Shown: positions 52,178 to 53,614 of the stretch, piece after piece
How positions within the stretch are numbered: position 1 is the stretch's first letter
Layout of the letters: each line of letters starts with the position of its first letter
Assembly: GCF_057098645.1 (NCBI RefSeq)
Contig: NZ_CM169472.1
Direction: 5' to 3' (one strand)
Length of the DNA: 64,000 nucleotides
Position numbers and translations under genes: made by a program
The notes under the pieces: model-generated
Databases searched by the model: none
Seen by the model: the letters and a program-made list of their open reading frames with translations, nothing else
Told to the model about the DNA's origin: nothing

Positions 52178-53614
52178 TCAGCGTTTGTAACCCCCGCCCA
52201 ACGCACCAGTGAGTTGAATGGAGGCATCCAGCCACTGCCCTTGCAATAACAGGCCATTGGCCCGCTCACGCAGCGCGGGGATTCTGGCTTCGCTGACGCG
52301 GGAACCAGCAATGATGCCCGCGTTAAAGCGCGCCTGCGCAAGACCTACCACACGCAAGGCATCGCGCTCAATTTGCGCCTGATGCTGGTTTTTCTCCGCC
52401 AGTGTCTGAACCTGACTGGCTGCCCGCGCCACGTCATTCACCGCTTCAACCACCGCTTTGTTGTAGCTGGCGATAGACAAGTTGCTTTCGGCTTTTGCGA
52501 TATCGAGATTGGCGTTAAGACGACCACTATCGAAAATGGGTAGCGTCAGGCCTGCCGTAACGCCCATTTGCTGCGCGGAATGACGGAACAGATCGCTTAA
52601 GTGCAACGCATCCTGTTGCAGGAAGGCCATCAGGTTGATGTCAGGATAAAATGCCGCTTTTGCCGCATCAATGGTGCTTAGCGATGACTCAACGTACCAG
52701 TGCGCCGCCTGCAAATCTGCCCGCCGGGCCAGTAAGGAGTACCCCAGTTCATCAGGAAGCTGGCTTGCCACTTTCGGCAACGCGACCGGTTTAAGCTTCA
52801 ATGACTTTGTCTGGTTATTTGTAAGTGCGCTTAACCGTGCCTCAATAATTTTCATTTTCCCCGCGACATCGTTGAGCTGCTGCCGGGTTTTGCTGGCATT
52901 AATATCGGTTTCCACACCTTCAACTGAAGAAGTAATCCCGTTCTGATATAGCTGGCGATCGGTCGCGATAATGGTGTTCTGCTCTTTTTCTATTTGCTGC
53001 AAGACCGTGTTTAACGCCGCCTGGGTTTGCCACTCCCAGTACAGGCGGGCTACGCTGCCAGCCAGCAATTGGCGGGTTTGCTCGCGTTCCGCCGCCCGTG
53101 CTTTAACCGTACCCAAGCGGGCAGTAACCTCCGCCCGATTCTTTCCCCAGATATCGAGATGCCAGCCCGCCGTTAAGCCAAAAGTACCGTTGGTGTACCA
53201 CGGGCCGGTCGTACCTGCGGCCGGATCGTTCAGAGCAAACGGCCCCATTAAGCCTTCTGCCGACATTTTTTGCCGCTCCATATCCGCCGAAAAGTCGATC
53301 TGCGGACCATCCTGAGTGGCAACTGCCTTCGCCTGGGCTTCAGCTAGCTGAATGCGCTGTTCAGCCACCTGCATATCCGGTGCGTTCTGTAGTGCATTGT
53401 TAATTAAGGAAGTGAGTTGATTATCGTGATACTCCAGCCACCATTGGCTGTCTGGCCAACCATTTTTCAGCGCCGTGGGTAATGCGGTGTCAACTTGTGC
53501 AGCGGGCGTTTGCTGGCTTAACGCCTGGCGGGTTTCATGCATAGGCGCACACCCGGCCAGCATCAGTAACAGCGGAAAACAGGCGATGGCTGGATAAAAG
53601 GAATCACGATTCAT
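52178..53614 (-). CDS. mdtQ: Outer membrane efflux lipoprotein MdtQ, apparently intact
   Basis: Lipoprotein signal LLMLAGC; uninterrupted 478-codon frame. Confidence 0.75.
   Translation of the reverse strand: MNRDSFYPAIACFPLLLMLAGCAPMHETRQALSQQTPAAQVDTALPTALKNGWPDSQWWLEYHDNQLTSLINNALQNAPDMQVAEQRIQLAEAQAKAVATQDGPQIDFSADMERQKMSAEGLMGPFALNDPAAGTTGPWYTNGTFGLTAGWHLDIWGKNRAEVTARLGTVKARAAEREQTRQLLAGSVARLYWEWQTQAALNTVLQQIEKEQNTIIATDRQLYQNGITSSVEGVETDINASKTRQQLNDVAGKMKIIEARLSALTNNQTKSLKLKPVALPKVASQLPDELGYSLLARRADLQAAHWYVESSLSTIDAAKAAFYPDINLMAFLQQDALHLSDLFRHSAQQMGVTAGLTLPIFDSGRLNANLDIAKAESNLSIASYNKAVVEAVNDVARAASQVQTLAEKNQHQAQIERDALRVVGLAQARFNAGIIAGSRVSEARIPALRERANGLLLQGQWLDASIQLTGALGGGYKR

Follow-up and report, generated by a model that had tools for sequence, protein, structure and literature searches.

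An intact mdtQ gene in an Escherichia coli chromosome and the single-base deletion that distinguishes it from the K-12 allele

The mdtQ gene (formerly yohG) is intact in the stretch of DNA analysed here, 64,000 nucleotides of contig NZ_CM169472.1 in assembly GCF_057098645.1 (the window), and differs from the frameshifted K-12 gene by the presence of one adenine in a short A-run. An intact mdtQ is the norm in E. coli and K-12 is the exception, so the emphasis of the preliminary description, which had singled out the unbroken frame, has to be shifted: the ordinary state lies in the window and the oddity lies in K-12. Taking all of the evidence together, we are highly confident that the window carries the wild-type, functional core-chromosome allele of a TolC/NodT-family outer-membrane-factor (OMF) lipoprotein, representing the ancestral intact state, and that K-12 mdtQ is a derived null. 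Both the intactness of the gene in wild strains and its pseudogene status in K-12 are already known from the literature and from RefSeq annotation. A 2025 review of TolC counts mdtQ among the conserved genes of the E. coli core genome, its pseudogene annotation notwithstanding (PMC11762307), while a paper on the neighbouring gene yohP mentions 'the mdtQ pseudogene' of K-12 (PMC12719787).

Reading frame, lipoprotein signal and family of MdtQ

The mdtQ coding sequence occupies positions 52178..53614 on the minus strand as an unbroken frame of 478 codons, with the ATG at 53614 and the TGA stop at 52178-52180. The preliminary description had given these coordinates and this length exactly, leaving the strand unstated. 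No internal frameshift or stop was found within 52178-53614: the frame translates without a break, and residues 1-478 of the product align with positions 1-478 of the 478-position NCBIfam profile NF008524, the MdtQ equivalog, scoring 1024.4 bits where the cutoff is 650. This end-to-end alignment marks the ATG at 53614 as the usual start of the family. The list of open reading frames holds a longer version, 52178..53704 on the minus strand, which counts 508 amino acids from an upstream TTG. The TTG at 53704 was rejected as the start in favour of the ATG at 53614, from which both the equivalog profile and every RefSeq annotation run. A 478-codon frame with a full-length family match of 1024 bits is far beyond chance. 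In addition, the window gene and the mdtQ annotated in strain MS15047 (WP_001078139.1) have the same DNA sequence (100% identity).

The N-terminus of the translation reads MNRDSFYPAIACFPLLLMLAG followed by CAP; a charged n-region and a hydrophobic core lead up to the lipobox L19-A20-G21-C22, which bears out the lipoprotein signal proposed earlier. The signal peptide with the lipobox at its end spans codons 1-22 (MNRDSFYPAIACFPLLLMLAGCAP; 53549..53614, minus strand), and the match to TIGR01845, the NodT subfamily of OMF lipoproteins, begins at residue 16. Cys22 is predicted to be acylated and to form the first residue of the mature protein. In the Lol sorting rule, an aspartate at position +2 acts as the inner-membrane retention signal. 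The +2 residue of MdtQ is alanine rather than aspartate, and by this rule the protein is predicted to reside in the outer membrane.

The naming of the gene as an outer-membrane efflux lipoprotein also stands, as several models agree on the TolC/NodT family. TIGR01845 matches residues 16-475 with 274 bits (cutoff 210), and the Pfam OEP domain (PF02321) is found with E=1.7e-30 in two matched stretches, the tandem repeats of the family. Among solved structures, VceC (1yc9, E=1e-39) aligns over residues ~51-477, and OprM, CmeC, SilC, CusC, OprN, MtrE and OprJ match over the same region. The model of MdtP (NF007390) gives 356 bits with E=2.7e-106, below its cutoff of 597; MdtQ is therefore ruled out as an MdtP orthologue and is a paralogue. 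Its scores with the CusC-type and TolC-type profile models are likewise under their cutoffs. From these homologies, MdtQ is most likely a trimeric exit duct that resembles TolC, is held in the membrane by a lipid anchor and belongs to the NodT subfamily.

We compared the window gene with the known members of the family. MdtQ (YohG) of E. coli, as represented by WP_001078139.1 and by Q8X659 of O157:H7, is the same gene without differences; the allele in the window is a common one. MdtP (the OMF of MdtNOP), VceC, OprM and CusC resemble MdtQ in having a lipobox, two OEP repeats and a length of about 460-480 amino acids; however, cusC and mdtP sit in operons with a pump and an adaptor, and mdtQ does not. 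E. coli has three TolC homologues, of which MdtQ is one (PMC11762307), but TolC is not a lipoprotein and the identity between the two is only about 12% (PMC11762307). The pump partners of TolC are known, whereas the partner of MdtQ is not (PMC11762307).

The K-12 lesion and mdtQ alleles across E. coli

In RefSeq, the mdtQ gene of MG1655p carries a pseudogene flag and the note 'frameshifted', in agreement with the disruption in K-12 mentioned in the preliminary description. The pairwise alignment with K-12 mdtQ, proposed there as the check, places the deletion in K-12 and shows the window to be free of any internal frameshift. Three differences occur in the 1437 nt. The decisive one is in a run of five adenines (A5; TTTTT on the plus strand) in codons 49-51, at 53463..53467 on the minus strand, which is reduced to A4 in K-12, a 1-base deletion at codon 50. 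The other two are synonymous: codon 167 (position 53116) is TTG in the window and CTG in K-12, and codon 475 (position 52190) is GGT in the window and GGG in K-12. The K-12 frame therefore encodes 50 native and 19 out-of-frame residues before a stop, giving a truncated product of 69 residues. The remainder of the K-12 gene is still open in the shifted frame, and any product reinitiated downstream would be made without the signal peptide. We also weighed programmed frameshifting and phase variation at the A-run and rejected them, because A4 and A5 are too short, the K-12 sequence contains no slippery heptamer and the alleles follow lineage.

Within a 7.4-kb segment that has mdtQ at its centre (49178-56614), K-12 MG1655 departs from the window at three positions only, all of them within mdtQ. 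That so similar a haplotype occurs in both forms, A5 and A4, is consistent with K-12 having lost the base recently, as a derived state. As a separate observation, the whole 24.2 kb shared by the window and K-12 is 99.72% identical, with 60 mismatches and 3 gaps; this part of the STEC-like chromosome is almost identical to K-12.

In 5390 of the 5426 complete E. coli genomes surveyed, at least 80% of mdtQ is covered by a match, which always lies on the chromosome. Identity ranges from 97.3 to 100% among the matches listed, and the best match of every record falls in the 95-99% band or in the band of at least 99%. The state of the A-run was read with 81-nt probes centred on it, for which the 99% band is reached by an exact match only. 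The A5 probe is exact in 3808 genomes and the K-12 A4 probe in 355, while the remainder have SNPs nearby. Judging by their strain names and sources, all 60 of the 355 A4 genomes that were listed seem to be laboratory strains or derivatives of K-12, including MG1655, C600, DH5alpha, DH1, J53, NCM3722, AG100, laboratory-evolution lines and the like. With names listed for 60 of the 355, it is strongly suggested that A4 is restricted to the K-12 lineage.

The intact alleles also bear the mark of selection. Six divergent alleles, whose identity to the window ranges from 97.3 to 99.3%, all have an unbroken frame with a length of exactly 1437 nt, and pairwise Nei-Gojobori dN/dS values among the seven intact alleles (the window included) lie between 0.01 and 0.19, which indicates purifying selection on mdtQ as the gene of a functional protein. 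Lesions other than A4 are independent but rare. In PSS-11, a human faecal isolate, mdtQ has a 1-nt deletion at codon 192, outside any homopolymer, which is either real or an assembly error; in STEC379, about 60% of the gene has been lost from its 5' end beside IS1/IS1A. Independent truncation of mdtQ has also been reported in a minority of Salmonella Typhi and Paratyphi A isolates (PMC9241588). Together, these inactivations show that mdtQ is dispensable in some niches.

Proposed role of MdtQ, alternative readings and consequences

In the model that we favour, the MdtQ precursor would be exported, Cys22 would be lipid-modified and the signal peptide would be cut at the lipobox. With alanine rather than aspartate at +2, the Lol pathway would then carry the protein to the outer membrane. 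Three protomers would assemble into a 12-stranded β-barrel and a long α-helical periplasmic tunnel, as judged by homology with VceC, OprM and CusC, and, going by the rest of the family, an inner-membrane pump and a periplasmic adaptor may use this tunnel as their exit duct. Genes for such a pump or adaptor are absent beside mdtQ in the gene order of the window and in the annotated genomes compared, which makes MdtQ an orphan channel; the TolC review likewise describes it as encoded independently of any pump (PMC11762307). In K-12, the loss of one A from the A5 run at codon 50 would end this route with the 69-residue product.

We considered the possibility that the frame is intact here yet silent or decaying, an unexpressed relic awaiting its disabling mutation. 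The expression signals give this reading some ground: the promoter and terminator scan around mdtQ returned site counts not above those of shuffled sequence, no obvious Shine-Dalgarno motif precedes the ATG, and neither a convincing promoter nor a ribosome-binding site is thus seen at the gene. The promoter is also experimentally unconfirmed and the function of the protein has not been elucidated (PMC11762307), and the gene has been lost repeatedly in individual lineages. However, neither the low dN/dS across divergent alleles nor the presence of full-length mdtQ in 99% of complete genomes is expected of a neutral relic, and all six of the divergent alleles sampled have kept the frame at its exact length. 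We therefore regard a silent relic as very unlikely. Less probable still, to the point of being nearly negligible, is that the intactness is an artefact of assembly or polishing at the homopolymer, or that A5 and A4 are the two states of a reversible, phase-variable switch. The lesion does lie in a homopolymer run, where sequencing errors and slippage readily arise, but A5 is exact in thousands of independent genomes and the A4 genomes listed look laboratory or K-12-derived. A mutation that arose once and was inherited would give this distribution; random error or frequent switching would not. Moreover, runs of 4-5 A are far shorter than known contingency tracts.

K-12 is a natural mdtQ null, and the main weight of the finding is on correct annotation. 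Studies of MdtQ function call for a strain with an intact allele or for K-12 with one A restored at codon 50, and caution is due with phenotypes that have been ascribed to an 'mdtQ deletion' made in K-12. The knock-out phenotypes reported so far are small shifts in susceptibility (PMC11762307, PMC9241588), and the TolC review, citing Sulavik et al. 2001, lists null phenotypes of mdtQ (yohG) for puromycin, acriflavine and tetraphenylarsonium (PMC11762307). If these mutants were K-12-based, the gene was already frameshifted, so the phenotypes did not come from loss of the MdtQ protein and need another cause, for example polarity on yohF, 52 nt downstream. A more speculative idea, to which we give a rather low probability, is that in wild and pathogenic E. 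coli of the O145:H28-like type, intact MdtQ may be a working second exit duct, either for a pump now assumed to be TolC-only or for a non-drug substrate. If so, efflux physiology established in K-12 would have missed one outer-membrane route.

Neighbourhood of mdtQ and the adjoining prophage

The gene order dusC - yohP - mdtQ - yohF - yohD - yohC - pbpG is the same in the window as in K-12 and other strains, and mdtQ lies between yohP/dusC and yohF/yohD in the window, K-12, MS15047, PSS-11 and STEC379, a conserved position. Downstream, yohF (51364..52125, minus strand), an SDR-family oxidoreductase gene assigned from the open-reading-frame list and from synteny and annotation in K-12 and MS15047, starts 52 nt after the mdtQ stop on the same strand. 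A consensus scan of this 52-nt gap found no terminator-like site, and mdtQ and yohF may be co-transcribed. On the other side, yohP (53838..53921, plus strand) encodes a 27-amino-acid small membrane protein, as read from the sequence and annotated in syntenic genomes (PMC12719787). It is divergent from mdtQ and is a neighbour, not part of the gene. Its product is MKIILWAVLIIFLIGLLVVTGVFKMIF, preceded by an AAGGA ribosome-binding site, and it falls below the 60-amino-acid limit of the open-reading-frame list, where it is therefore not listed. YohP has recently been reported to lower the membrane potential during starvation (PMC12719787).

A Rfam scan of 51000-55500 found no elements. A GC-rich dispersed repeat occupies 53985-54250 between yohP and dusC, 363 bp upstream of yohG and 43 bp downstream of yohI/dusC, a location that identifies it as the TRIP1c of PMC10888264. 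Copies of this repeat number a median of 3 and a maximum of 8 per E. coli genome, and the copy in the window contains a perfect 12-nt inverted repeat (54031-54042 and 54051-54062). An 86-amino-acid open reading frame at 53992-54252 lies wholly within the repeat and is probably not a gene.

A lambdoid prophage makes up the first ~39.7 kb of the window (1-39750). Its genes include those for a tail tape measure protein, head proteins, terminase, lysis, a Q antiterminator and a SASA-family esterase, as well as three tRNAs (Arg, Arg, Ile); the stretch of prophage seen has no annotated stx gene. The excisionase and integrase genes are at ~38160-39735. The prophage has the 5' end of mlrA (yehV) as its integration site; K-12 lacks the prophage, and the alignment of the window with K-12 breaks inside mlrA. 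The best match to the whole region is found in the O145:H28 STEC strains RM12761 and RM13516, and the portal gene of the prophage is annotated as 'frameshifted' in RM12761.
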